Shown here in pieces: positions 10,788 to 40,249 of a stretch of DNA of 45,695 nt; the stretch's first letter is position 1, and every line of letters begins with the position of its first letter. The stretch is taken from assembly GCA_032325415.1 (NCBI GenBank), contig GCA_032325415.1_4119.2. One strand, written 5' to 3'. The position numbers and the translations under genes are program-made. Origin of the DNA: a phage. The notes below the pieces were generated by a model. The model saw only the letters and a program-made list of their open reading frames with translations, was not told the DNA's origin and did no database searches.

Positions 10788-10882
10788 AAAAAAGTGGTTG
10801 ACTTCGGTCAGCCATTTTGCTATTATATATTCATTGAGAGATAGCTCACTAGCCCACAGGGTGCAGGAGTGTATCTATTATA
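10788..10882 (+). repeat. R module copy 1: terminator-like hairpin with embedded promoter plus conserved core AGCCCACAGGGTGCAGGAGTGTATCT
   Basis: Hairpin GTGGTTGAC-TTCG-GTCAGCCAT (wobble-compensated), -35 TTGACT 10798-10803, -10 TATTAT 10821-10826; homologous to 14813, 17527, 19497. Confidence 0.65.
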
Positions 10883-10920
10883 TGAGTATTGAGTACTGAA
10901 AACTATTTTTAAAAAAGTAC

Positions 10921-11966: not shown

Positions 11967-12010
11967 AAGTTTTATCAACAGTAGTTAACTTAACCTAAGA
12001 GAGAAACAAA

Positions 12011-12154
12011 ATGATCGCACTGGATTCATTCATCGACGCAGTACTGGCAAAAACTGGCGAGGATCTGACCGCAGAACAATACGCGATGATCGAGCAATGC
12101 CAGCAAGACGGTAAATCGGTGAAAGATACTGTTAAGATTATCCGCAAGATGTAA
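12011..12154 (+). CDS. small protein (47 aa), not in ORF track
   Basis: SD TAAGAGAGA then ATG 12011; ORF MIALDSFIDAVLAKTGEDLTAEQYAMIEQCQQDGKSVKDTVKIIRKM; followed by terminator. Confidence 0.5.
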   Translation: MIALDSFIDAVLAKTGEDLTAEQYAMIEQCQQDGKSVKDTVKIIRKM

Positions 12155-12160
12155 GATTAT

Positions 12161-12190
12161 AGCCCACTGGTTAACGCTGGTGGGCTTTAA
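12161..12190 (+). terminator. probable rho-independent terminator
   Basis: AGCCCAC-TGGTTAACGC-TGGTGGGCT hairpin then TTTAATT (weak T-run). Confidence 0.55.
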
Positions 12191-12259
12191 TTCATTACCC
12201 TATACAATGCCAGTACTACACCGTTTATCTCGTTAGAATGCGTTACAGGACGTTTGACA

Positions 12260-12457
12260 ATGATTAGCATGAAATCAGTACAAAAACAAATAGAAACATT
12301 ATCAAAAATTAAACGTAAACAGTACTCCTTAGAATATACAATCAATGGTAACTATCATCTAATGAAAGAGAATAATTTTATCGTCATTGATGAATCATTG
12401 CAAATCATTAGTATAGTACTGAAAGCATTAATCAATGACAGAAAAAAATTAAAATAA
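12260..12457 (+). CDS. hypothetical AT-rich protein (65 aa)
   Basis: Track ORF; ATG 12260 with SD-like AGGACG 7 nt upstream; no cassette promoter; composition differs from neighbours. Confidence 0.4.
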   Translation: MISMKSVQKQIETLSKIKRKQYSLEYTINGNYHLMKENNFIVIDESLQIISIVLKALINDRKKLK

Positions 12458-12461
12458 ACTA

Positions 12462-12490
12462 TTGACAATATCATCAAGTACTGGCATAAT
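12462..12490 (+). promoter_or_regulatory. sigma70-like promoter
   Basis: -35 TTGACA 12462-12467, 17-bp spacer with AGTACTG, -10 CATAAT 12485-12490. Confidence 0.55.
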
Positions 12491-12541
12491 ACTTACATCA
12501 AGACGAGAACGTCACTAACCCATAGGGTGCACAAATGTAAC

Positions 12542-12625
12542 TGTATAATATTGATCAAAAAATGATCTGATCAATACTTGATCAATTTGCGTAAAGTAGT
12601 ATAATTCTGATCAATTCTTGATCAA
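12542..12625. promoter_or_regulatory. cluster of six GATC sites (five within TGATCAA palindromes) flanked by extended -10-like elements
   Basis: GATC at 12553, 12564, 12569, 12580, 12609, 12620; TGTATAAT 12542-12549 and TAGTATAAT 12597-12605. Confidence 0.55.
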
Positions 12626-12786
12626 AGGCAATAAACGCAGTTGAATTTATATAGACAATACAAAGGCGTTACTATCCGTGGTAATGCTGGTGGATATGTA
12701 GTATCATATGGTTTGAATAAGATTAGCACTAGTAGTATTATTGTAGCATTACAGTACTATAGTATTTTTATAATGAGGTTAAAATA

Positions 12787-13044
12787 ATGGCTGTTGGATT
12801 CGCGAAGGACGGGGCCGAGCAAGACGAGATTAACGCAGTGATTCAGGCCGCTGTAAACCACGCTAGAACGCAAATTAACGCACAAATAGAATCACTGATA
12901 CATTGCCTCGACTGTGGCGATAAAATCCCTGAGAATCGCCGCCAGGTCGTTAAGGGGTGTAAGTACTGTATCACTTGCCAGGAGGATCATGATAGTACTT
13001 TTAAACGTCAACCGCGTAATTGTTGGCATAGATCTATGAGATAA
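12787..13044 (+). CDS. TraR/DksA-family C4 zinc-finger protein (85 aa), likely RNA-polymerase-binding regulator
   Basis: CLDCGDKIPENRRQVVKGCKYCITCQ matches the TraR/DksA zinc-finger pattern CxxCG-x-IP-x-x-RR ... CxxCQ (compare F-plasmid TraR CEACGNPIPEARRK...CVECQ). Confidence 0.8.
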   Translation: MAVGFAKDGAEQDEINAVIQAAVNHARTQINAQIESLIHCLDCGDKIPENRRQVVKGCKYCITCQEDHDSTFKRQPRNCWHRSMR

Positions 13045-13050
13045 AAAGTA

Positions 13051-13078
13051 TTGACAGTACTGAAAGATAGTGTATAAT
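13051..13078 (+). promoter_or_regulatory. sigma70-like promoter
   Basis: -35 TTGACA 13051-13056, 16-bp spacer with AGTACTG, -10 TATAAT 13073-13078. Confidence 0.6.
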
Positions 13079-13107
13079 GTTTTATATCTTAACTGAGGAT
13101 AGAAATC

Positions 13108-13464
13108 ATGGGAATACAACATATCACGCGTACTACTGACAATGGCGAGATCACTGGCTATCAAGTACAGGGCAAAGTAGCACAATTGCAGTACTGGTTT
13201 GTTAAACGTGGAATCATTGCACCGGATCTTGATTATGACCGTGTAGCGTTTATTGATTCTCTTTATGTTGATCCTGATAGTCGGGGGAATGGTGAAGGTA
13301 ACGAATTAATGAATGCCTTTATTGATGCCGCCGATGATTCAGATTGTATCATCTTAGAATGCGATACGGGAGAAGATAACGCCTTTAATCTTAAAGAATG
13401 GTATGAAGGTTTCGGATTCGAGGTACTGATCGATAGTGAATATCCTATCATGATTTTATCATAG
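13108..13464 (+). CDS. putative GNAT-family N-acetyltransferase (118 aa)
   Basis: SLYVDPDSRGNGEGNELMNAF resembles GNAT motif A (R/Q-x-x-G-x-G/A acetyl-CoA loop) and EWYEGFGFE resembles motif B; SD TGAGGAT. Confidence 0.55.
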   Translation: MGIQHITRTTDNGEITGYQVQGKVAQLQYWFVKRGIIAPDLDYDRVAFIDSLYVDPDSRGNGEGNELMNAFIDAADDSDCIILECDTGEDNAFNLKEWYEGFGFEVLIDSEYPIMILS

Positions 13465-14812: not shown

Positions 14813-14900
14813 GAAAAAGGGATTGACTCCGGTCAGTCCCTTTGCTATTATATACGCATAGAAACAAATCAGCCCACAGGGTGCATAAATGTATCTATTG
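14813..14900 (+). repeat. R module copy 2 (terminator-like hairpin, embedded promoter, conserved core)
   Basis: AAAAAGGGATTGACTCCGGTCAGTCCCTTT hairpin; -35 TTGACT 14823-14828, -10 TATTAT 14846-14851; core AGCCCACAGGGTGCATAAATGTATCT. Confidence 0.65.
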
Positions 14901-14935
14901 TTTGCTGGTGGCTAGTACTGAAAACTATTTTTAAA

Positions 14936-17526: not shown

Positions 17527-17612
17527 AAAAGATTAAAAAAGGGATTGACTCCGGTCAGTCCCTTTGCTATTATATATTCATTGAGAGATAACTCACTGAC
17601 CCATAGGGTGCG
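17527..17612 (+). repeat. R module copy 3 (terminator-like hairpin, embedded promoter, conserved core)
   Basis: AAAAAAGGGATTGACTCCGGTCAGTCCCTTT; -35 TTGACT 17545-17550, -10 TATTAT 17568-17573; core GACCCATAGGGTGCGGAAGTGTATCT. Confidence 0.65.
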
Positions 17613-17666
17613 GAAGTGTATCTATTATATAAGTATTCAGTACTGAAAACTATTTTTAAAAAGTAC

Positions 17667-19496: not shown

Positions 19497-19585
19497 TAAA
19501 AAAGGGATTGACTCCGGTCAGTCCCTTTGCTATTATATACGCATAGACAAAAACTAGCCCACAGGGTGCATAGGTGTATCTAAAA
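19497..19585 (+). repeat. R module copy 4 (terminator-like hairpin, embedded promoter, conserved core)
   Basis: AAAAAAGGGATTGACTCCGGTCAGTCCCTTT; -35 TTGACT 19508-19513, -10 TATTAT 19531-19536; core AGCCCACAGGGTGCATAGGTGTATCT. Confidence 0.65.
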
Positions 19586-19670
19586 TATATAGTTAATAAC
19601 GGTGAGTAACTATCTGCTGGTGGATGTACTGCCAGTACTCAAGGGAACTAAAACTATTAATAAAAAAGTA

Positions 19671-21704: not shown

Positions 21705-21916
21705 TTATTATAGAAAACTCATATCAATATACTGAACGCATCGCTGCCAGACAACTTGAAATCCTCATAATATACGAAGCGACTTCTGATTTAAACTTAG
21801 CCGAGGTATTGGAAAATGATATACTATTGGGTGCATTCTTAGGAACAGACTATCAGAAGTATTATGAGGAAAAGTATTTGTCATCTCTTGAGAAATATAT
21901 CAGGAGCAAATTATGA
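21701..21916 (+). CDS. family-A small paralog (71 aa)
   Basis: ATGA overlap; LGTDYQKYYEEKYLSSLEKYIRSKL. Confidence 0.65.
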   Translation: MIIIENSYQYTERIAARQLEILIIYEATSDLNLAEVLENDILLGAFLGTDYQKYYEEKYLSSLEKYIRSKL

Positions 21917-22125
21917 TTTTTTTAACACCAGAAGAATATAAGAAACGTTTCAATTCCGCACAGGGTGAAATCTTACTTATATACCTTTCAAATGCAGACC
22001 TTAACTTATCAAGGGCAATGGAGAAGGATTTACTTATGGGTGCATTTTTGGATACAGACTTTCAGGAGTATTATGTAGGGAAATACTTAATTGAACTTCA
22101 GAACTACATTAAGAGTAAACTATGA
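21913..22125 (+). CDS. family-A small paralog (70 aa)
   Basis: ATGA overlap; LDTDFQEYYVGKYLIELQNYIKSKL. Confidence 0.65.
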   Translation: MIFLTPEEYKKRFNSAQGEILLIYLSNADLNLSRAMEKDLLMGAFLDTDFQEYYVGKYLIELQNYIKSKL

Positions 22126-22349
22126 AACATTTAAGTAATATTGAGAAGATGAGAATTATCATTGATGCATTAAACAAATACGATACCCTTTTACAAATAA
22201 AAGGTTTAACTCGATTGGAACACAAGATAAACACCACCGATGTACGCATGTTGGCTGTACTGGGGACGAACTTTCAGGAAGAGTATGTTGTTGCACACAT
22301 AGTTGCACTCACTAATTACATAATGGACAAATGTAATGAACATCATTAA
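22122..22349 (+). CDS. family-A small paralog (75 aa)
   Basis: ATGA overlap; LGTNFQEEYVVAHIVALTNYIMDKC. Confidence 0.65.
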   Translation: MKHLSNIEKMRIIIDALNKYDTLLQIKGLTRLEHKINTTDVRMLAVLGTNFQEEYVVAHIVALTNYIMDKCNEHH

Positions 22350-22560
22350 TAACTTTGAATACGAGGCCCGTGCTAAGAGTGCCAGAAAAAAAGAGAACAC
22401 CATTTACTTCACTATGATGTACTTACAATGGACTGAAATTGAAGAAAAGGTTGCTGAAGTATGGATGTTGGAATTCATGGGGACGCAGTATCAGAATAGG
22501 TTTGCGGGTGAGTATATCAATGTTCTTATGAAACAAATAGAAAGAAAGGAAAAGAACTAA
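22336..22560 (+). CDS. family-A small paralog (74 aa)
   Basis: Overlapping start; MGTQYQNRFAGEYINVLMKQI. Confidence 0.6.
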   Translation: MNIINNFEYEARAKSARKKENTIYFTMMYLQWTEIEEKVAEVWMLEFMGTQYQNRFAGEYINVLMKQIERKEKN

Positions 22561-22718
22561 TGGTTTTCATTAACATATCTGACCAACTCGATACTAAACT
22601 AGAAGTCGAGCAGAGTGAGGGATGGATGCTGTACTTTCTTGGAACTTCTCATCAGAATTTTTATATCCATGAACACATAGTTGCACTCAAGAATTACATT
22701 ATGGACAAATGCAAATGA
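22560..22718 (+). CDS. family-A paralog, shortened copy (52 aa), not in track
   Basis: ATG 22560 overlaps upstream stop (TAATG); MVFINISDQLDTKLEVEQSEGWMLYFLGTSHQNFYIHEHIVALKNYIMDKCK carries the family motif. Confidence 0.5.
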   Translation: MVFINISDQLDTKLEVEQSEGWMLYFLGTSHQNFYIHEHIVALKNYIMDKCK

Positions 22719-22972
22719 AATACTTAACACAAGATGAATATTCACTTAGAATTCGAAAGCTCACCCCAGAAGCAAGAGTAATCTACGATGACCCCACCCT
22801 TACATGGAACCAAATGCGAGCTAAAGTTAATGAGCTATGGTTGCTGTACTTTATGGGGACTCAATATCAAGATAAGTTTTGCAAAGAATTTGTCGATCAA
22901 TTAATGAATGTTATACAGGATAAACTAGATGAATATTGGCTCGCAAAACATGAAGACTTTATCAGGAGTTGA
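22709..22972 (+). CDS. family-A small paralog (87 aa)
   Basis: Track ORF; MGTQYQDKFCKEFVDQLMNVIQDKL. Confidence 0.6.
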   Translation: MQMKYLTQDEYSLRIRKLTPEARVIYDDPTLTWNQMRAKVNELWLLYFMGTQYQDKFCKEFVDQLMNVIQDKLDEYWLAKHEDFIRS

Positions 22973-23201
22973 GTATCAAACTGCCCTCTTCTCTCTTATT
23001 AACACCCTTAGAAAAAACAATGCATTACATGGTGCACCTGAAGTGGATGTTATCAACGGTGATGTTTATCTTATGAAATTCATTGGAACAAACTATCAAG
23101 ATCTGTTCATTCAACGATACTTGGCAGCATTAAGAAACCAAATCCAATATAAAACCCAGAGAGCCAAAAAAGAATGGAATAAACAATGCGACAAAGAATG
23201 A
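22950..23201 (+). CDS. family-A small paralog (about 83 aa; start uncertain, track start 22929)
   Basis: IGTNYQDLFIQRYLAALRNQI; start set at MKTLSG by analogy to other members. Confidence 0.55.
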   Translation: MKTLSGVEYQTALFSLINTLRKNNALHGAPEVDVINGDVYLMKFIGTNYQDLFIQRYLAALRNQIQYKTQRAKKEWNKQCDKE

Positions 23202-23434
23202 ACCACAAAATGTATTGTAAACTATTGCAGACACTGGCACAGAAACACTATGACACTGTATCTGAAATATTACCCTATGATATCATGCGTTTAATTCATA
23301 GTGAGGCAGAGATGCTTGTACTGATGACAGGCACTGATAAAACAGCAATCGCCAGATCGATAGAGCAATATATTGATGCACACTGCCAACACATGAGAAC
23401 CGAAATCTGGAGGAAAGAGAATGATAATTCTTAA
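23198..23434 (+). CDS. family-A-like small paralog (78 aa; track start 23186)
   Basis: ATGA overlap at 23198; degenerate motif LMTGTDKTAIARSIEQYIDAH. Confidence 0.5.
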   Translation: MNHKMYCKLLQTLAQKHYDTVSEILPYDIMRLIHSEAEMLVLMTGTDKTAIARSIEQYIDAHCQHMRTEIWRKENDNS

Positions 23435-23636
23435 TGAGTATCAGTATCATTGGAGGTTACAAACTATCAAATCAAAAGTGTATAGTATTGTGTTAAACAA
23501 ATCTATTGCACAAGAGGACAAATGTGTTATAATAGCTGAAATGAAGTTGGGTGTATTCGTAGGGACAAACTATCAAAACATCTACACTGACGTATTATTA
23601 AGTTCCTTACGTAACAAGGTGGTATCCAAAATATGA
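23421..23636 (+). CDS. family-A small paralog (71 aa)
   Basis: Track ORF; VGTNYQNIYTDVLLSSLRNKV. Confidence 0.6.
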   Translation: MIILNEYQYHWRLQTIKSKVYSIVLNKSIAQEDKCVIIAEMKLGVFVGTNYQNIYTDVLLSSLRNKVVSKI

Positions 23637-23851
23637 GAAATTTACAAGGCTTTGAATACATCAGACTCCTGAAAACATGTGGAAGCAGAAGGAGAATGAT
23701 ATCAAGCGATAAGAGCATCCAAGCTAACCTTAAGCACGCACTAGTAACTGAACTCTATGTAGGTGCACTCTTAGGCACAAACTATCAACAAATGTATGTA
23801 GATCTATGGATTGACGCTCTACAGAAAGAGGTTAAAAGTAAATGCAAATGA
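23633..23851 (+). CDS. family-A small paralog (72 aa)
   Basis: ATGA overlap; LGTNYQQMYVDLWIDALQKEVKSK. Confidence 0.65.
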   Translation: MRNLQGFEYIRLLKTCGSRRRMISSDKSIQANLKHALVTELYVGALLGTNYQQMYVDLWIDALQKEVKSKCK

Positions 23852-24060
23852 TTAATTTAAGTAAAGACGAATTTTATGTTATACTGGCGAAAACTTATCC
23901 AGCACGTAAGGCCGTTTATGATAGTAACATTATTGAACCCTCAAAGAAGTTGATTTTAGTAAATGAGATAAAGATGCTTTCAGTCTTAGGGACAAACTAT
24001 CAAGAGAATGCTGTACTGATGTTAATTGATGCCCTCCAGCGAGAGGTTAAACGTAAATGA
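23842..24060 (+). CDS. family-A small paralog (72 aa)
   Basis: Track ORF; LGTNYQENAVLMLIDALQREV. Confidence 0.65.
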   Translation: MQMINLSKDEFYVILAKTYPARKAVYDSNIIEPSKKLILVNEIKMLSVLGTNYQENAVLMLIDALQREVKRK

Positions 24061-24287
24061 AAATGATTCATTTAACTTACCATGAATATCAAAAACGTTT
24101 AAATGCATCCAGAGATATAAGGATTCAAATATTCAATAACAAAAGATTGAAGCCTGATATCAGAAAAATCAAAATTATAGAAGCAGAGTTATGCAACTTT
24201 CTAGGGACCAACTATCAGGCAGGTAAGGTAAAAAACTATCTTAGAGAACTAAAGAATAGTATTGAAAATAAATGTGAGGGTAATTAA
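24057..24287 (+). CDS. family-A small paralog (76 aa)
   Basis: ATGA overlap; LGTNYQAGKVKNYLRELKNSIENK. Confidence 0.65.
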   Translation: MKMIHLTYHEYQKRLNASRDIRIQIFNNKRLKPDIRKIKIIEAELCNFLGTNYQAGKVKNYLRELKNSIENKCEGN

Positions 24288-24288
24288 C

Positions 24289-24528
24289 ATGAAAATGATT
24301 AAATTATCTCAAGCAAAATATAAAGAACGCCTGGTGAAAATTGCACCTGGACTTAATGAAATCCATCACGGAGAAGTCATTAAACACGGAAATAAGATGA
24401 TTATGAAACTTGAGTTAAAGGTGGGTGCATTCATAGGAACAAACTATCAGGAGTATTATGTAGATGAATACATAATCGCACTTAAGAGATACATTGGAAG
24501 AAAACTATATCTACAAACTAAAGAATAG
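24289..24528 (+). CDS. family-A small paralog (79 aa; track start 24262)
   Basis: ATG 24289 just after upstream stop; IGTNYQEYYVDEYIIALKRYI. Confidence 0.6.
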   Translation: MKMIKLSQAKYKERLVKIAPGLNEIHHGEVIKHGNKMIMKLELKVGAFIGTNYQEYYVDEYIIALKRYIGRKLYLQTKE

Positions 24529-24557
24529 TATTGAAAATAAATGTGAGGTTGATGAAC

Positions 24558-24821
24558 ATGCAAATGATCAATTTAAGTAAAGATGAATATACCGAGCGTA
24601 TGACAAAAATTACGCACAAACGTAATACAATCTATCACAACCCAGAAATTCAACACAGTAAGAAAATGATTATGATGCGTGAGTTAAAGATGGGTGTATT
24701 CTTAGGAACAAACTATCAAGATACAGAAGTAAATCGCTTAATCGCGGAGTTACTACTGGAAATCAAAGGTAAGCTGTACTTTTATCAAATGACCCAACCA
24801 CTAAGGTGTACTGATCGATGA
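24558..24821 (+). CDS. family-A small paralog (87 aa; track start 24531)
   Basis: Start MQMINLSKDEY matches N-terminus of 23842 gene; LGTNYQDTEVNRLIAELLLEI. Confidence 0.6.
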   Translation: MQMINLSKDEYTERMTKITHKRNTIYHNPEIQHSKKMIMMRELKMGVFLGTNYQDTEVNRLIAELLLEIKGKLYFYQMTQPLRCTDR

Positions 24822-25069
24822 ATACTATGAATAAAATTAATAAAATCGACTTAGCAGAAAGTTTTGCCAGAATGGGGGAAGCTCTGAAAAGATACGAAAA
24901 GGAATATGGTCATTTAAGCTTTTCTATAGAAAAGAGATATGAACTGGAAACAGAGTTTAAAATGCAGAGTCTCTTAGGAACACAATATCAAACAAGATAT
25001 GTTCAAACTTGGATTGATTGTTTAATCCAGACAATTCATGTAAGGAACATTAAATGCAAAATGAAATGA
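24818..25069 (+). CDS. family-A small paralog (83 aa)
   Basis: ATGA overlap; LGTQYQTRYVQTWIDCLIQTI. Confidence 0.65.
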   Translation: MNTMNKINKIDLAESFARMGEALKRYEKEYGHLSFSIEKRYELETEFKMQSLLGTQYQTRYVQTWIDCLIQTIHVRNIKCKMK

Positions 25070-25308
25070 TATACTTAACCTATAATGAATACGTCGAGAG
25101 ATTAGTTCGTGCCAAGAGATATACCAATAAACGTCCAATTGACCTAAACCAAACCCCAGCAGAAAGGAGTGCAGAAGTATTATTCCAATCACTACCATAT
25201 CTTCTGGGAACTGATAGACAAGAGGAATATGTTGCACGTATGATTAGATATCTTAAAATCACTATTAAGGAAAAAGTAAATGCAAATGAAATACTTAACA
25301 GACGATGA
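25054..25308 (+). CDS. family-A small paralog (84 aa; alternative start 25066)
   Basis: Track ORF; LGTDRQEEYVARMIRYLKITIKEK. Confidence 0.6.
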   Translation: MQNEMIYLTYNEYVERLVRAKRYTNKRPIDLNQTPAERSAEVLFQSLPYLLGTDRQEEYVARMIRYLKITIKEKVNANEILNRR

Positions 25309-25531
25309 GTTAAAAGAACGACTAATTAAATCCAGAAAACTTACAAATCAACTTCCAAACGACACAAACAAGTCACATGCCGAAAGGAGTGCAGAAGTTT
25401 TATACATTCAACTCATGTACTTTCTTGGAACTGACAGACAAGAGTATTACATTGAAAGTATGCTTCGATATCTTAAATTCTCTATAAAGGAAAAGATACA
25501 TGCTCAAGAATTTAAAAATCCTAACAGTTAA
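25280..25531 (+). CDS. family-A small paralog (83 aa)
   Basis: Track ORF; close paralog of 25054 (SHAERSAEVLY...LGTDRQEYYIESMLRYLKFSIKEK). Confidence 0.6.
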   Translation: MQMKYLTDDELKERLIKSRKLTNQLPNDTNKSHAERSAEVLYIQLMYFLGTDRQEYYIESMLRYLKFSIKEKIHAQEFKNPNS

Positions 25532-25742
25532 TGAATATCATACGATTGTAATGAAAACTAATAGTGCAATTTCTAAAAAATCAAACCCAAAGTACATACT
25601 GGAACACACATTTGAAGAACGTCAATTAGCTTTAGTTGAAGCAAAACTTCTTGCACTCCTAGGGACTAACTATCAAGAAGAATACATCAGAAAACTAATA
25701 TACCTTTTAACTAAACATATAAGAAAAAGAAAAAATGCATGA
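25500..25742 (+). CDS. family-A small paralog (80 aa)
   Basis: Track ORF; LGTNYQEEYIRKLIYLLTKHI. Confidence 0.6.
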   Translation: MLKNLKILTVNEYHTIVMKTNSAISKKSNPKYILEHTFEERQLALVEAKLLALLGTNYQEEYIRKLIYLLTKHIRKRKNA

Positions 25743-25969
25743 AACACTTGACAGATGATGAACATGGGCTTATAGTAATGGATGTAATCAACATCGAATA
25801 CAAAAAGTTGATACGCTACCGTTGTTATGAAGATAAGCAACTCGTTCTAGCAGAACAGAAGTTGTTTCGACTCTTAAACACAAACTTCCAAGCACAATAC
25901 GAAGAATCGTATATGTACCTTTTGGCGAGGAAAGCAAAAAGAGATTATGAAAATTTTAAGCAAAGGTGA
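25739..25969 (+). CDS. family-A small paralog (76 aa)
   Basis: ATGA overlap; LNTNFQAQYEESYMYLLARK. Confidence 0.6.
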   Translation: MKHLTDDEHGLIVMDVINIEYKKLIRYRCYEDKQLVLAEQKLFRLLNTNFQAQYEESYMYLLARKAKRDYENFKQR

Positions 25970-26162
25970 TTCAGTAATATTACTTATAGAGAGTTCAAGT
26001 AAATTCTTAAACATAACACTGTCTGATATAGATGAAGATGACAAAGAAGTACTGAGAGCAGATTTAAGAGTACTGTTACATATCGGAACAAACCTACAAG
26101 AAGAATATGTAGAGTGCTACATCAATGAACTTAAAGAATCCGTATTGAGAAAATGCAAATGA
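25947..26162 (+). CDS. family-A small paralog (71 aa)
   Basis: Track ORF; IGTNLQEEYVECYINELKESV. Confidence 0.6.
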   Translation: MKILSKGDSVILLIESSSKFLNITLSDIDEDDKEVLRADLRVLLHIGTNLQEEYVECYINELKESVLRKCK

Positions 26163-26401
26163 AAATGAAAATCATTTCACCCACAGAATACAACCAACTA
26201 TTAAGTAGTTTAATTCTAAAGTTGTTTATAACAAAAAGCATGAAATTACCAGATGATGAAATAAGTATTCTAGTAAGTGAAATCTATGTTCAAGCTACAC
26301 TAGGGACTAACTACCAAGAATGCAATATTAATGATTACATCAAAGAACTAAAAAGGTTTATCCAATGCAAATGCGAATCATTACCGACGAAGAATACCTA
26401 A
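26153..26401 (+). CDS. family-A small paralog (82 aa)
   Basis: Track ORF; LGTNYQECNINDYIKELKRFI. Confidence 0.6.
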   Translation: MQMKMKIISPTEYNQLLSSLILKLFITKSMKLPDDEISILVSEIYVQATLGTNYQECNINDYIKELKRFIQCKCESLPTKNT

Positions 26402-26607
26402 CAATCTTAAATGGACTGTTTTTGAAGTTATTTGCCATTAACACATCAAAACTACCAGATACTGATAAAATTATTAAGTTAAATGAAATCTATGTTCAAG
26501 CTACTCTAGGAACTAACTATCAAGAAGCCAATGTGTATAATTACATTAATACACTCAAAAGGGTAATAAAATTAAAATGCACAGACAACACACACACAAA
26601 CCCCTAG
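26365..26607 (+). CDS. family-A small paralog (80 aa)
   Basis: Track ORF; close paralog of 26153 (KLPD...EIYVQATLGTNYQEANVYNYINTLKRVI). Confidence 0.6.
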   Translation: MQMRIITDEEYLTILNGLFLKLFAINTSKLPDTDKIIKLNEIYVQATLGTNYQEANVYNYINTLKRVIKLKCTDNTHTNP

Positions 26608-26807
26608 GAACAGCAGAATACATTGAACTAATGGCATTACACTTCTCATCCTTTCAGAAACTTAGGCGAGAATCAAAGAATGATTTAGAATATACCATCA
26701 GAGGTTCCGATTTAAGAATGCTTCTCACCCTAGACACAGATTCCCAAGAGCGATTTGTCAATGAGCATATTAGAGCACTTTTAATGGAAATTCAAAGTAA
26801 ACTATGA
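26577..26807 (+). CDS. family-A small paralog (76 aa)
   Basis: Track ORF; LDTDSQERFVNEHIRALLMEIQSKL. Confidence 0.6.
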   Translation: MHRQHTHKPLGTAEYIELMALHFSSFQKLRRESKNDLEYTIRGSDLRMLLTLDTDSQERFVNEHIRALLMEIQSKL

Positions 26808-27019
26808 AGATAATATCAAACCAAGAGTACTTGGCACTATTCAGGAAGAATAATCACAAATATATGGCACTTGATTCAAGAACTGATATAAGTGAACTTG
26901 AAAAAAATCTTTTGCGTTCAGATATGATAGTACTGACACTCTTAGGAACACAGCATCAAGAGAGAACTGTTAATTCACACATAGGTATTCTTATACAGAT
27001 TGTACAGGAAAAGATATGA
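26804..27019 (+). CDS. family-A small paralog (71 aa)
   Basis: ATGA overlap; LGTQHQERTVNSHIGILIQIV. Confidence 0.65.
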   Translation: MKIISNQEYLALFRKNNHKYMALDSRTDISELEKNLLRSDMIVLTLLGTQHQERTVNSHIGILIQIVQEKI

Positions 27020-27237
27020 GAATCATAACACAACAAGATATTCTTAAGTTCACAAGGGTTCATGCATCTGAATTTGATGCTATATTATCAAAAAGTTACA
27101 ACAACCCTTATACACAAGATGTACATTACAGTGAATTATGGATGTATATACTTTTAGGTACAAATAAGCAAGAGCAAGCCGTACAGAAGTATTTGACAGC
27201 TTTACGTGATGCTACAGCTAATGGAGTATGTGTTTAA
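27016..27237 (+). CDS. family-A small paralog (73 aa)
   Basis: ATGA overlap; LGTNKQEQAVQKYLTALRDA. Confidence 0.65.
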   Translation: MRIITQQDILKFTRVHASEFDAILSKSYNNPYTQDVHYSELWMYILLGTNKQEQAVQKYLTALRDATANGVCV

Positions 27238-27238
27238 T

Positions 27239-27481
27239 ATGAAAGTACTGACAGAACTAGAAATGTATCATAGATTTAATAAGTACTATCATTTACTTAA
27301 GCCTATACAGAGGATTAAATGTCCATTTGAAGAGAAACAGGTTTTAATCTATGAGCACAAGTTCTTTGTATCATTAGGTACAGATCAACAAGAGTACTAT
27401 TTGACGTTGTACTTGATTACATTAATAGATTTAATTCACTATAAAACCAAACAAGCTAATAAAGAGAAATATGAAAACTAA
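27239..27481 (+). CDS. family-A small paralog (80 aa; track start 27206)
   Basis: ATG 27239 right after upstream stop; LGTDQQEYYLTLYLITLIDLI. Confidence 0.6.
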   Translation: MKVLTELEMYHRFNKYYHLLKPIQRIKCPFEEKQVLIYEHKFFVSLGTDQQEYYLTLYLITLIDLIHYKTKQANKEKYEN

Positions 27482-37927: not shown

Positions 37928-38419
37928 ATGACATTACAGAGTGCATTGAAAGAAGCAAAGAAGATTCATGAGTACATGATTATGGCAAAAGAAGGTTCAG
38001 TTTACGGTGTTTTCAAAGACACAAGTACTCAATATTATGTACCGGATAACCTCCTTTATAATGACTGCTCAGATACAGAAACGTGTGTACTGGATACAGA
38101 AACGTGCATACTAGATACCGACCCTAATGATTATGAATGCTTCATTAATATGCATAATGAGTACATGGTCTATATTAATGATACAGATACCATCAACAGT
38201 ACTGACAGCGATTCCAATGACATTATAATTCCGAGTGAAGTACTGGAAGGTCCGTGGGATAGTGAAGAGTATTACTTCCAACAGAGTACTGTATATGATA
38301 ATGAAGTACTTGATGTTATTATAATTATGTGGTACTTTAAAAGTATTGGTTCTGGGAACTTCTATTTCGATTACAAATACGTAAAGAAAACTGTAGATAA
38401 CGGTATTAACAGGGGTTGA
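37928..38419 (+). CDS. family-B paralog, B2 subgroup (163 aa)
   Basis: N-terminus MTLQSALKEAKKIHEYMIM; C-terminus LEGPWDSEEYYFQQSTVYDNEVLDVIIIMWYFK; internal tandem repeat DTETCVLDTETCILDTD. Confidence 0.65.
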   Translation: MTLQSALKEAKKIHEYMIMAKEGSVYGVFKDTSTQYYVPDNLLYNDCSDTETCVLDTETCILDTDPNDYECFINMHNEYMVYINDTDTINSTDSDSNDIIIPSEVLEGPWDSEEYYFQQSTVYDNEVLDVIIIMWYFKSIGSGNFYFDYKYVKKTVDNGINRG

Positions 38420-38420
38420 A

Positions 38421-38891
38421 ATGAGTTTAGAAAGAGCATTAGAGATTGCGAAGTTAATTGATTTATGCAGCAAAGAAATTGTAGCAAATTGTCTTAATGG
38501 ATATCTATTCAAGGAAGGTAAATCATATTGTCGAATGAGATACGATGACAGTAGTGAGTACATTCACATGTATGAAGAAAACTTAGATTCTTCTGAAACA
38601 ACACTCAATGGGTGTGATGTTAATTTGGAAGATAATTACATGTACTTCTGTCGTGATGCTGATATTTTAATACAAGATTCTGACATTATATCTGGTGCAG
38701 CAGAGAAACATCTTCCGTATTCAGTACTGGATAATGACTGGGGAAGTGAAGAGTACTACTTCCAGCAGAATACTATCTACGAGGAAGATGTACTTGACAA
38801 GCTTGTCATTCTGTGGTACTTTAATAATACAGATTGTCCTAGCTTCTATTTGGACTTGGATCTACTACGAGTTATTAAAGAGGATATATGA
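38421..38891 (+). CDS. family-B paralog, B2 subgroup (156 aa)
   Basis: MSLERALEIAKLI ... LDNDWGSEEYYFQQNTIYEEDVLDKLVILWYF. Confidence 0.65.
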   Translation: MSLERALEIAKLIDLCSKEIVANCLNGYLFKEGKSYCRMRYDDSSEYIHMYEENLDSSETTLNGCDVNLEDNYMYFCRDADILIQDSDIISGAAEKHLPYSVLDNDWGSEEYYFQQNTIYEEDVLDKLVILWYFNNTDCPSFYLDLDLLRVIKEDI

Positions 38892-39331
38892 GTTTAGCAA
38901 GTGCACTTGAACTAGCACACAGAATACATCACTTCCACGATAACATAAAAAGTGGGTTCTATGGTGATAAAGTAAGTGCATTTGGTGATGAGTATTATCT
39001 ATCAGGTATAAAGACATACTCTGATGATATTTTACTTATGGGACAGGATAAAGACAATACTATACAGTACTCTTCATGTAGTCAATATACTAGTTTTTTT
39101 GTATATATTCCAGGTACTAAGATTACGTTTGACACATCAAATGCACCTGTTGACTTCGGGGTACTTGATGGCCCGTGGGGTACTGAAGAGTATTACTTCC
39201 AACAGAGTTTCATTTTTAACCAAGAAATGCTTGATTCCTTGGTTGTGTTGTGGTACTTTAAGGAATTGAATTTTGAACCATTCTTTCTTGACTGGGGAGC
39301 ATGTGAATATTTAAGTACAGGGGATTTGTAA
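38888..39331 (+). CDS. family-B paralog, B2 subgroup (147 aa)
   Basis: MSLASALELAHRIHH ... LDGPWGTEEYYFQQSFIFNQEMLDSLVVLWYFK. Confidence 0.65.
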   Translation: MSLASALELAHRIHHFHDNIKSGFYGDKVSAFGDEYYLSGIKTYSDDILLMGQDKDNTIQYSSCSQYTSFFVYIPGTKITFDTSNAPVDFGVLDGPWGTEEYYFQQSFIFNQEMLDSLVVLWYFKELNFEPFFLDWGACEYLSTGDL

Positions 39332-39819
39332 TGTCATTACAAAGTGCATTGAAAGAAGCAAAGAAGATTCATGAGTACATGATTATGGTACAGGAAGGTT
39401 CAGTACCAGGTGTATATAAAACATCTGATACTGAATTTTTTGTAAAAGACCGTGACGATTATGACGAGTCCGAGATATGTGCAGAAACATTAGTACTGCA
39501 CACTGATACTGGTGACAGTGATAACTGTGAATATCATATGTACAATCAGTACATTAGTTATTGCCGTAATGAAGATATTACCATCTACAACACAGATAGT
39601 GATGCTGATGACACTATCATTCCTTATTCAGTACTGGAAGGTCCGTGGGATAGTGAAGAGTATTACTTCCAGAATACTACGTTGTACAATGAAGAAGAAT
39701 TAGATGTTATTGTAATTATGTGGTATTTCAAAAGTATTGACTCCAGTAGTTTCTATTTTGATTATGAATATGTAGAGAATACTGTAGGAGAAGGTAATGT
39801 CATTACAAAGTGCTCTTGA
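39331..39819 (+). CDS. family-B paralog, B2 subgroup (162 aa)
   Basis: MSLQSALKEAKKIHEYMIM ... LEGPWDSEEYYFQNTTLYNEEELDVIVIMWYFK. Confidence 0.65.
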   Translation: MSLQSALKEAKKIHEYMIMVQEGSVPGVYKTSDTEFFVKDRDDYDESEICAETLVLHTDTGDSDNCEYHMYNQYISYCRNEDITIYNTDSDADDTIIPYSVLEGPWDSEEYYFQNTTLYNEEELDVIVIMWYFKSIDSSSFYFDYEYVENTVGEGNVITKCS

Positions 39820-40249
39820 AAAAGCAAAAGAACTACATGGATACTTTGACGATATAAAGGCAGGAAAGTTCAAAGAAGTGTACAAAGCCGAGAACGGCAA
39901 CTACTACAAGGATGAAATGTATAATAACTCCGTTGGTGTAAGGGTTATTCTTGGGTTGAATTCCAATAGTCCTATATCGTTTTCTGAATACAATAGAGAT
40001 GCAGAATTTATTAGTTATGTTGAAAATGGTAGCATTCGTTTTATTAATCGCAAAAAACCATTAATTTTGAATTATGAAGTACTGGAAGGTCCGTGGGATA
40101 GTGAAGAGTATTACTTCCAAAACAGTACTGTTTACGATGATGAAGTACTTGAAGCATTAGTTATTATGTGGTACTTAAAGAGTGTTAACTGTCCTCGATT
40201 TTATTTGGATTTCGAAGAACTTCGTAAAGATCCAGAAGGTATAGAATGA
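39797..40249 (+). CDS. family-B paralog, B2 subgroup (150 aa)
   Basis: MSLQSALEKAKELHGYF ... LEGPWDSEEYYFQNSTVYDDEVLEALVIMWYLK. Confidence 0.65.
   Translation: MSLQSALEKAKELHGYFDDIKAGKFKEVYKAENGNYYKDEMYNNSVGVRVILGLNSNSPISFSEYNRDAEFISYVENGSIRFINRKKPLILNYEVLEGPWDSEEYYFQNSTVYDDEVLEALVIMWYLKSVNCPRFYLDFEELRKDPEGIE

Follow-up and report, generated by a model that had tools for sequence, protein, structure and literature searches.

Six clustered GATC sites in a jumbo coliphage: most likely a small cis-regulatory protein-binding array in the control region of an optional early-gene cassette

What are six GATC sites doing within 71 bp of intergenic phage DNA? The question arises from a 45,695-bp stretch of phage sequence (the window, to which all positions refer), in which GATC begins at 12553, 12564, 12569, 12580, 12609 and 12620. 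These coordinates and the unusual density had both been reported in an earlier note on this DNA, and both hold, the former by direct count and the latter by simulation. The window contains 111 GATC in all (1 per 412 bp; 138 in dinucleotide shuffles), its densest stretch is the one considered here, followed by one with 4 sites in 100 bp, and a density of six in 71 bp was reached in 1 of 1000 first-order Markov simulations of the window, which on average contained more GATC than the real sequence. Successive sites are 11, 5, 11, 29 and 11 bp apart, and the pairs described earlier as lying about 11 bp apart turn out to be three exact 11-bp pairs (12553/12564, 12569/12580 and 12609/12620). Five of the six sites have the form TGATCA, the sole exception being TGATCT at 12564, and three are embedded in the 8-bp palindrome TTGATCAA (12551-58, 12578-85 and 12618-25). 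The description as "TGATCAA palindromes" was loosely worded, TGATCAA itself being no palindrome. On the + strand GATCAA is found at five of the six sites, which makes the motif directional; no tandem repeat was called in the cluster by TRF.

By megablast (92-96.5% identity to relatives including 121Q, PBECO4, vB_Ec-M-J and fEgEco12), the window belongs to an Asteriusvirus jumbo coliphage of ~350 kb from the 121Q/PBECO4 group. In vB_Ec-M-J the homologous site lies ~12.1 kb into an annotated direct terminal repeat of 21,525 bp, and for fEgEco12 a terminal repeat of 20,993 bp was determined with PhageTerm and then confirmed by restriction digests (PMC13070987). The cluster is located mid-way, 11-12 kb inside the ~21-kb direct terminal repeat, and assemblies that include both repeats contain it twice. 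It is surrounded by a dense run of small genes, each with a sigma-70-type promoter close to consensus, after which a 5' hairpin and a Shine-Dalgarno sequence often come; RpoD-like early promoters are known from the related phage CBB (PMC5259590), and those of the window match them. Between ~2270 and 20170 of the window, we observed ~20 near-identical early-promoter cassettes of the form AAAAAGTACTTGCAA-N16-TATAATGTTTTACATCGAG (for example at 2286, 3982, 10908, 14929 and 20080); downstream of them there are usually a 5' hairpin (GGGGAGAA..TTCTCCCC), a Shine-Dalgarno sequence and a small gene. TTGACA is used by another early-promoter family, and AGTACT motifs flank the early promoters, GTAC having an observed/expected ratio of 1.5. 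Further towards the presumed left end of the repeat, an ORF-poor, largely non-coding 2-kb stretch (~1-2200) harbors an array of ~11 units with 8-bp periodicity at 1467-1552 (CTAGACGG / CTAAACGG / CTGGATGG and so on), which could serve as an end-proximal signal in packaging, injection or protein binding. Diverged direct-repeat families with units of 140-270 nt, recurring every 210-480 bp at 21810-27400 and 38188-40244, are probably tandem arrays of small paralogous genes just past the terminal repeat. The literature searched contained no mention of the cluster, of early-promoter mapping or of methylomes for the Asteriusvirus group.

As a genome-wide reference we used the complete genome of the relative TH47 (352,450 bp), in which GATC is depleted (581 observed versus 1243 expected; ratio 0.47) and the homologous cluster, with 5 sites in 71 bp, is the densest of the genome, the next best having 3. 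Observed/expected ratios are 0.91 at positions 1-21,000 and 0.31 at 21001-45695 of the window, and 0.95 in the repeat-homologous part (85-108 kb) and 0.43 elsewhere in TH47; GATC avoidance is confined to the genome outside the terminal repeat. At the repeat boundary the G+C content falls from ~0.385 to ~0.325, and the early genes of the terminal repeat and the remaining genome are different compositional regimes. GCGC is wholly absent from the window (0 versus ~50 expected) and from TH47 (0 versus 172 expected), a pattern that suggests very intense selection, such as a host or phage nuclease specific for GCGC might exert; CCGG (0.61) and CATG (0.72) are low as well. Adjacent GATC pairs spaced 10-12 bp apart number 10 in TH47 versus ~3 expected, as estimated from site density. 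The arrangement GATCAA-N5-GATCAA occurs there three times, twice in the cluster and once in an intergenic region at 26415. The GATC pair of this second locus (26415-26433 of TH47; GGATCAATTTTTGATCAAT), spaced by 11 bp, has a terminator hairpin on one side and the next gene, on the minus strand, on the other. A comparison of TH47, phAPEC6 and 121Q shows unchanged cores and spacing but variable flanks (GATCAAT, GATCAAA, GATCATT and GATCGAT), the conservation statistic for this locus being weak (about 0.1); for the genes adjoining the pair, no known function was found. The E. coli host is dam+. In addition, every Asteriusvirus checked, with or without the cassette described below, encodes a predicted phage-type N6-adenine methyltransferase of 174 aa (PF05869 at E 3.5e-33; the TIGR01712 match is just under the cut-off).

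The 330-bp gap between the end of an upstream 65/67-aa ORF (12457) and the ATG of a TraR/DksA-like gene (12787) contains, in this order, a promoter P1, a conserved 55-nt element, the GATC array with a second promoter P2, and a 48-aa ORF (ORF48) that precedes the TraR/DksA-like gene; apart from the palindromic GATC sites, all features are given for the + strand. On its left the segment is bounded by one copy of a 9-bp direct repeat, TTAAAATAA (12449-12457), which contains the stop codon of the upstream ORF. P1 is predicted at 12462-12490 (TTGACA-17-CATAAT with TG at -15/-14; 11 of 12 consensus matches) with a start near 12497-98, and both of its hexamers are invariant in 8 phages while the spacer varies. 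Its predicted leader of ~143 nt contains all six GATC sites. P2 is predicted at 12578-12605 (TTGATC-16-TATAAT; 10 of 12 matches, -10 at 12600-12605) with a start near 12612-13, and its -35 hexamer is the TTGATC of the fourth GATC site. It represents a diverged member of the ~20-copy early-promoter family GTACTTGCAA-N16-TATAAT, of which TTGnnn-16-TATAAT preceded by GTACT / A-tract is characteristic, ranking 69 of 91,292 positions with the family PWM; the 121Q-type P2, which retains the AAAAAAGTACT upstream tract, outscores that of the window. The -10 hexamer of P2 and the motif GATCAATTT are invariant in 14 phages, the spacer being diverged. Of the two, P1 is predicted to be the stronger promoter.

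The intervening 55-nt element (12495-12549; core CCCATAGGGTGCAC..ATGTAACT) does not vary among relatives, and the window has four paralogues of it. It ends in a TATAAT-like hexamer at 12544-49 that aligns with non-promoter sequence in the paralogues, reads TATAAC in CMSTMSU and Turkey5, and is probably not a promoter. The five copies (10791-10890, 14816-14912, 17538-17637, 19501-19597 and 12495-12549) share a core RCCCAYAGGGTGC..RTGTAWCT, and each is flanked by a promoter on its upstream side and a standard promoter on its downstream side; in four of the five, the former (TTGACT-17-TATTAT) sits within a terminator hairpin. As a structured RNA, the element gave neither covariation across the five paralogues nor an Rfam match, and in IMG/VR it was found only in 121Q itself. 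These details bear on the earlier proposal that the cluster sits between two extended -10 elements (TGnTATAAT), which fails on two counts. Neither TATAAT qualifies: in 12542-49 (TGTATAAT) TG directly abuts TATAAT, with zero spacer base, and 12596-605 (GTAGTATAAT) is without TG; it is P1 that has the extended -10 feature, at 12482-90 (TGGCATAAT). Moreover, two of the six sites lie 3' of the second TATAAT, so that the cluster is not located between both elements.

Counted from the P2 start as predicted, the GATC sites fall at -60, -49, -44, -33, -4 and +8, and they overlap the -35, upstream and start regions of this predicted promoter. Site 1 (TTGATCAA, 12551-12558; -60) and site 2 (TGATCT, 12562-12567; -49) have cores that are invariant in 14 of 14 phages, the 5' flank of the former being T or C. 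Sites 3 (12569, -44) and 4 (12580, -33) belong to copy A of a 20-mer, TCTGATCAATACTTGATCAA (12566-12585), which overlaps the P2 -35 region and is present in the PBECO4-type haplotype; site 3 is missing in the 121Q type. Sites 5 (12609, -4) and 6 (12620, +8) belong to copy B, TCTGATCAATTCTTGATCAA (12606-12625), which covers the P2 start and is found in the 121Q-type haplotype but is missing in the PBECO4 type; in Turkey5, site 6 is mutated to GTTC.

Downstream of the array, ORF48 (12641-12787; PHROG 38664) begins with TTG, 12 nt upstream of which AAAGG is found, and its stop codon overlaps the ATG of the TraR-like gene (TAATG). The cluster does lie upstream of the TraR-like gene, as had been noted, yet not immediately so, the intervening 48-aa ORF having been overlooked. 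ORF48 is annotated in 121Q, PBECO4 and Turkey3 and, despite ~35% DNA divergence between two alleles, has the same length and non-ATG start in both, so that it is probably a real ORF. In TH47 (an unverified record), a stop codon lies within ORF48. A single-sequence AlphaFold model consists of one long helix (pLDDT 71) with a hydrophobic C-terminal helix. We considered and rejected ORF48 as an autoregulator, the low-confidence single-sequence model having no DNA-binding fold and Pfam yielding no match. The C-termini of the upstream ORF and ORF48 look alike (KKLK and MRLK, each directly before the stop); as to a duplication, BLASTP detected no homology between ORF48 and the upstream 65-aa ORF. 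The gene that follows (12787-13044) encodes an 85-aa C4 zinc-finger protein of the TraR/DksA family (PF01258, E 2.3e-11). The right copy of TTAAAATAA (12779-12787) bounds the segment, which is optional: in phAPEC6 and ph0011 the stop of the upstream ORF is fused straight to the TraR-like ATG, with the 330 bp missing precisely between the two TTAAAATAA copies. Using blastn, the cluster was found in 28 records and was not detected in ~10 Asteriusvirus genomes (phAPEC6, ph0011, UE-S1, G17, Sharanji, EJP2, A4, ECO103 4-12-1 and EC22.5-2 among them), which match only the P1-plus-element part, at other loci. As judged from these genomes, the cassette is dispensable, and the direct repeats, together with the similar C-termini, hint at short-repeat recombination, by deletion or insertion, as the origin of the 330-bp polymorphism.

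Such optional presence weighs heavily against the reading in which the cluster serves DNA transactions, either as a Dam-controlled origin of the oriC or P1 oriR type or as a P1-like pac site. GATC clusters are characteristic of oriC and P1 oriR, and the earlier note had drawn the oriC analogy alongside its suggestion of a regulatory region. What keeps the reading alive at all is a formal resemblance to the P1 pac site: pac comprises seven TGATCA/G hexamers in 161 bp, each a Dam site, arranged in two groups and subject to methylation-controlled cleavage (PMC10028697), and the array likewise has five TGATCA hexamers in 71 bp with 11-bp spacing. However, pac is an essential sequence of 161 bp within pacA at which packaging starts, whereas the array spans 71 bp, is intergenic, lies 11-12 kb inside the terminal repeat with the genome ends mapped elsewhere, and is cleanly absent, together with its 330-bp segment, from close relatives. 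The cluster-less relatives share the replication and packaging genes, which makes a unique origin or pac site at this place very unlikely. The array furthermore lies among promoters, with two coupled ORFs after it; no exact DnaA box (TTATNCACA) was found within 12000-13200, no oriC-type 13-mer in the cluster and no IHF consensus nearby. A replication origin was thus rejected for want of DnaA boxes and 13-mers and for the segment missing in close relatives, and a P1-like pac site for its absence from congeners and the mid-repeat position. We consider either role extremely improbable; of the earlier suggestion, the regulatory region fits the promoter context, while the oriC analogy finds no support. 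Whichever function holds, our analysis removes these more exciting readings.

An alignment of 14 phages resolves the array into two halves, each with two forms. On the left, form L1 (PBECO4 type) reads TTGATCAAAAAATGATCTGATCAATACTTGATCAAT and has 4 GATC sites, and form L2 (121Q type) reads T(C/T)GATCAATAAATGATC-A(4-7)-GTACTGGATCAAT and has 3; on the right, form R1 (121Q type) reads TCTGATCAATTCTTGATCAAAGG with 2 sites, and form R2 (PBECO4 type) is unrelated sequence with none. Two pairings occur naturally, L1+R2 in 15 records (4 sites) and L2+R1 in 13 (5 sites). The window is an L1+R1 recombinant with six sites, a combination and a site count encountered in no database phage, so the number of sites per phage is 4, 5 or 6, and the phase of site 4 relative to site 2 shifts with the length of the A-tract (4-7 A). 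Of 50 positions compared, 15 differ between L1 and L2, among them the base directly 5' of two cores, and yet the shared GATC cores at 12553, 12564 and 12580 differ at 0 of 12 positions (hypergeometric P = 0.007). Similarly, the 9-nt island GATCAATTT at the P2 -35 region is intact between flanks that are ~50% diverged (P = 0.003). These statistics rest on few events, as there are only two or three independent haplotypes. The first two bases of the P2 -35 hexamer, the ones that matter most for sigma-70, vary (TT or TG), and TTGATC is changed to TCGATC or TGGATC in relatives; the comparison favors GATC itself over the TTGATCAA palindrome as the conserved unit. Conservation of the cores with changing flanks leans toward a version in which methylation or SeqA is what reads the sites.

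The same mosaic could be taken to mean that the cluster has no dedicated function and is a by-product of local history. According to this explanation, a -35 box (TTGCAAT or TTGACAAT) was converted to TTGATCAAT by a change of 1-3 nt and then duplicated locally, and in the window recombination united the GATC-rich halves of two haplotypes. The window is indeed composed of a left half of the PBECO4 type with 4 sites and a right half of the 121Q type with 2, and TTGATCAAT differs from the family -35 boxes by a small insertion. GATC is also undepleted in the terminal repeat (observed/expected 0.91), so clusters there face less counter-selection, and the dispensability of the cassette and the mutated site in Turkey5 point the same way. 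Against this, the parental haplotypes already have 4-5 GATC in ~70 bp, the genome-wide maximum, the cores were kept in the face of ~30% local divergence, and the 11-bp pairing is found three times here and again at the second conserved locus. On balance, we regard a mere by-product as fairly unlikely.

The main rival to a methylation-read array is an operator that acts independently of methylation. Here, a sequence-specific protein of phage or host would read GATCAAT-N3-TGATCAA, with half-sites one helical turn apart, and would repress or activate P2 by binding over the -35 region (copy A) or the start (copy B), GATC being merely part of the motif. The 20-mer, TCTGATCAAT(A/T)CTTGATCAA, occurs in two copies that are 95% identical well past the GATC cores, and each natural haplotype retains exactly one of them, upstream over the -35 in L1 (PBECO4 type) and over the start in R1 (121Q type). 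This likeness beyond the cores, together with the one copy per haplotype, fits a sequence-specific protein better than SeqA. The positions of the sites are those of classical operators, and the rarity of GATCAA-N5-GATCAA (only three times in the 352 kb of TH47) points in the same direction. On the other hand, the flanks change between haplotypes (TCGATCAAT, TGGATCAAT and GATCTG, as well as GATCATT/GATCGAT at the second locus) while the cores are kept. No candidate binding protein was found, with ORF48 modeled, at low confidence, as a single hydrophobic helix, and scans of IMG/VR (TGATCAA-N4-TGATCAA, a 14-base pair motif) and of GTDB genomes (the 17-base motif TGATCAATNCTTGATCAA) gave scattered, unrelated matches and no enterobacterial locus. 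An operator of this kind is possible, though on the unlikely side.

A fourth explanation moves the function to the RNA level, where the repeated, self-complementary GAUCAA in the P1 leader, either by its structure or by binding a protein, would control translation or stability of the ORF48/TraR-like mRNA. P1, if active, would transcribe all six sites, the motif has a direction (five of six sites read GATCAA on the + strand), and the leader folds somewhat better than shuffled sequences (z = -2.1). Yet palindromic repeats yield such an excess of folding automatically, no Rfam match was obtained in the whole window, and the downstream pair is missing from the PBECO4-type leader; palindromic TGATCA cores and helical-turn spacing indicate recognition of duplex DNA instead. 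An RNA element is, in our estimation, highly improbable.

Taken together, the six GATC sites most likely constitute a small cis-regulatory protein-binding array on the control region of the optional early-gene cassette, a reading best supported by promoter placement, helical-turn pairing and core-specific conservation. As to what reads the array, our tentative preference, held at somewhat less than an even chance, is for GATC-centered regulation, probably through Dam methylation state or SeqA. The protein SeqA recognizes hemimethylated GATC in pairs, preferably ~10 or 20 bp apart, and represses the E. coli promoter dnaAp2 when this is hemimethylated (PMC2912659); the three 11-bp pairs match the spacing preference. 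SeqA is also listed as a regulator of the phage lambda promoter pR (PMC2777414). The most probable reader would be host SeqA, bound to paired hemimethylated GATC on one face of the helix; alternatively, N6-methyladenine might act directly on RNA polymerase at the -35 region. In the SeqA scenario, virion DNA would enter fully methylated and the cassette would be expressed, the first round of phage replication would then render the sites hemimethylated, and SeqA might coat the array, occlude P2 and block read-through from P1. The outcome would be a replication-coupled change in expression of the early cassette, off in the proposed scenario, as at dnaAp2, or possibly on. Carried to its full extent, this would mean that a lytic jumbo phage uses the replication-coupled epigenetic clock of its host, with SeqA silencing a TraR/DksA-type host-takeover cassette at the start of replication, a proposal that we judge quite unlikely in this complete form. 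It might also be this clock that underlies the twofold to threefold purge of GATC from the rest of the genome, which spares the pre-replicative genes of the terminal repeat.

If the array is indeed read by methylation, it would offer a clean and compact case in which a lytic phage sets the timing of an early gene through hemimethylation coupled to replication. To date this mechanism is documented mainly from chromosomal genes, transposons and temperate phages. Natural allelic variants with 4, 5, 6 or 0 sites are at hand. If it proves to be an operator for another factor or a historical by-product, it would represent ordinary phage promoter architecture.

Among the nearest known systems, dnaAp2 corresponds to the preferred Dam/SeqA reading. 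Several GATC lie within and around a sigma-70 promoter, as they do at the predicted P2, with pairs about one helical turn apart, and the expected read-out is transient repression after replication, while the sites are hemimethylated (PMC2912659). The array differs in that it belongs to a predicted early promoter of a lytic jumbo phage with an N6-adenine methyltransferase of its own, and in having six sites in 71 bp that include the -35 hexamer. Lambda pR shares with it the nature of a phage promoter, the activity of which depends on nearby GATC and host SeqA (as cited in PMC2777414). At pR, however, SeqA stimulates, and the GATC sites are few and dispersed, some of them downstream. Unlike this arrangement, the array is dense and overlaps core promoter elements, which suggests occlusion. 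In Mu mom, P22 gtr and agn43, clustered GATC sites lie upstream and methylation decides on the binding of a regulatory protein. The array resembles mom and gtr in its position upstream of a phage gene, but the GATC sites of these systems lie within OxyR recognition sequences, and phase variation of the OxyR/Dam kind would make no sense for a lytic phage. An OxyR/Dam switch (ATAGnTnnnAnCTAT twice) was rejected as well, the search returning one half-site with 2 mismatches at 12601 and no partner. In the pIN promoter of IS10/Tn10, GATC lies in a core hexamer, where its methylation state directly sets how well RNA polymerase binds and links expression to replication. The array has this placement of GATC inside a core promoter hexamer in common with pIN, although pIN has a single GATC in its -10 and the array has one in the -35 plus five more. 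If functional, the array would be an addition to the Dam/SeqA-sensitive promoters with clustered GATC that are already known, unusual in residing in a lytic jumbo phage that otherwise purges GATC.
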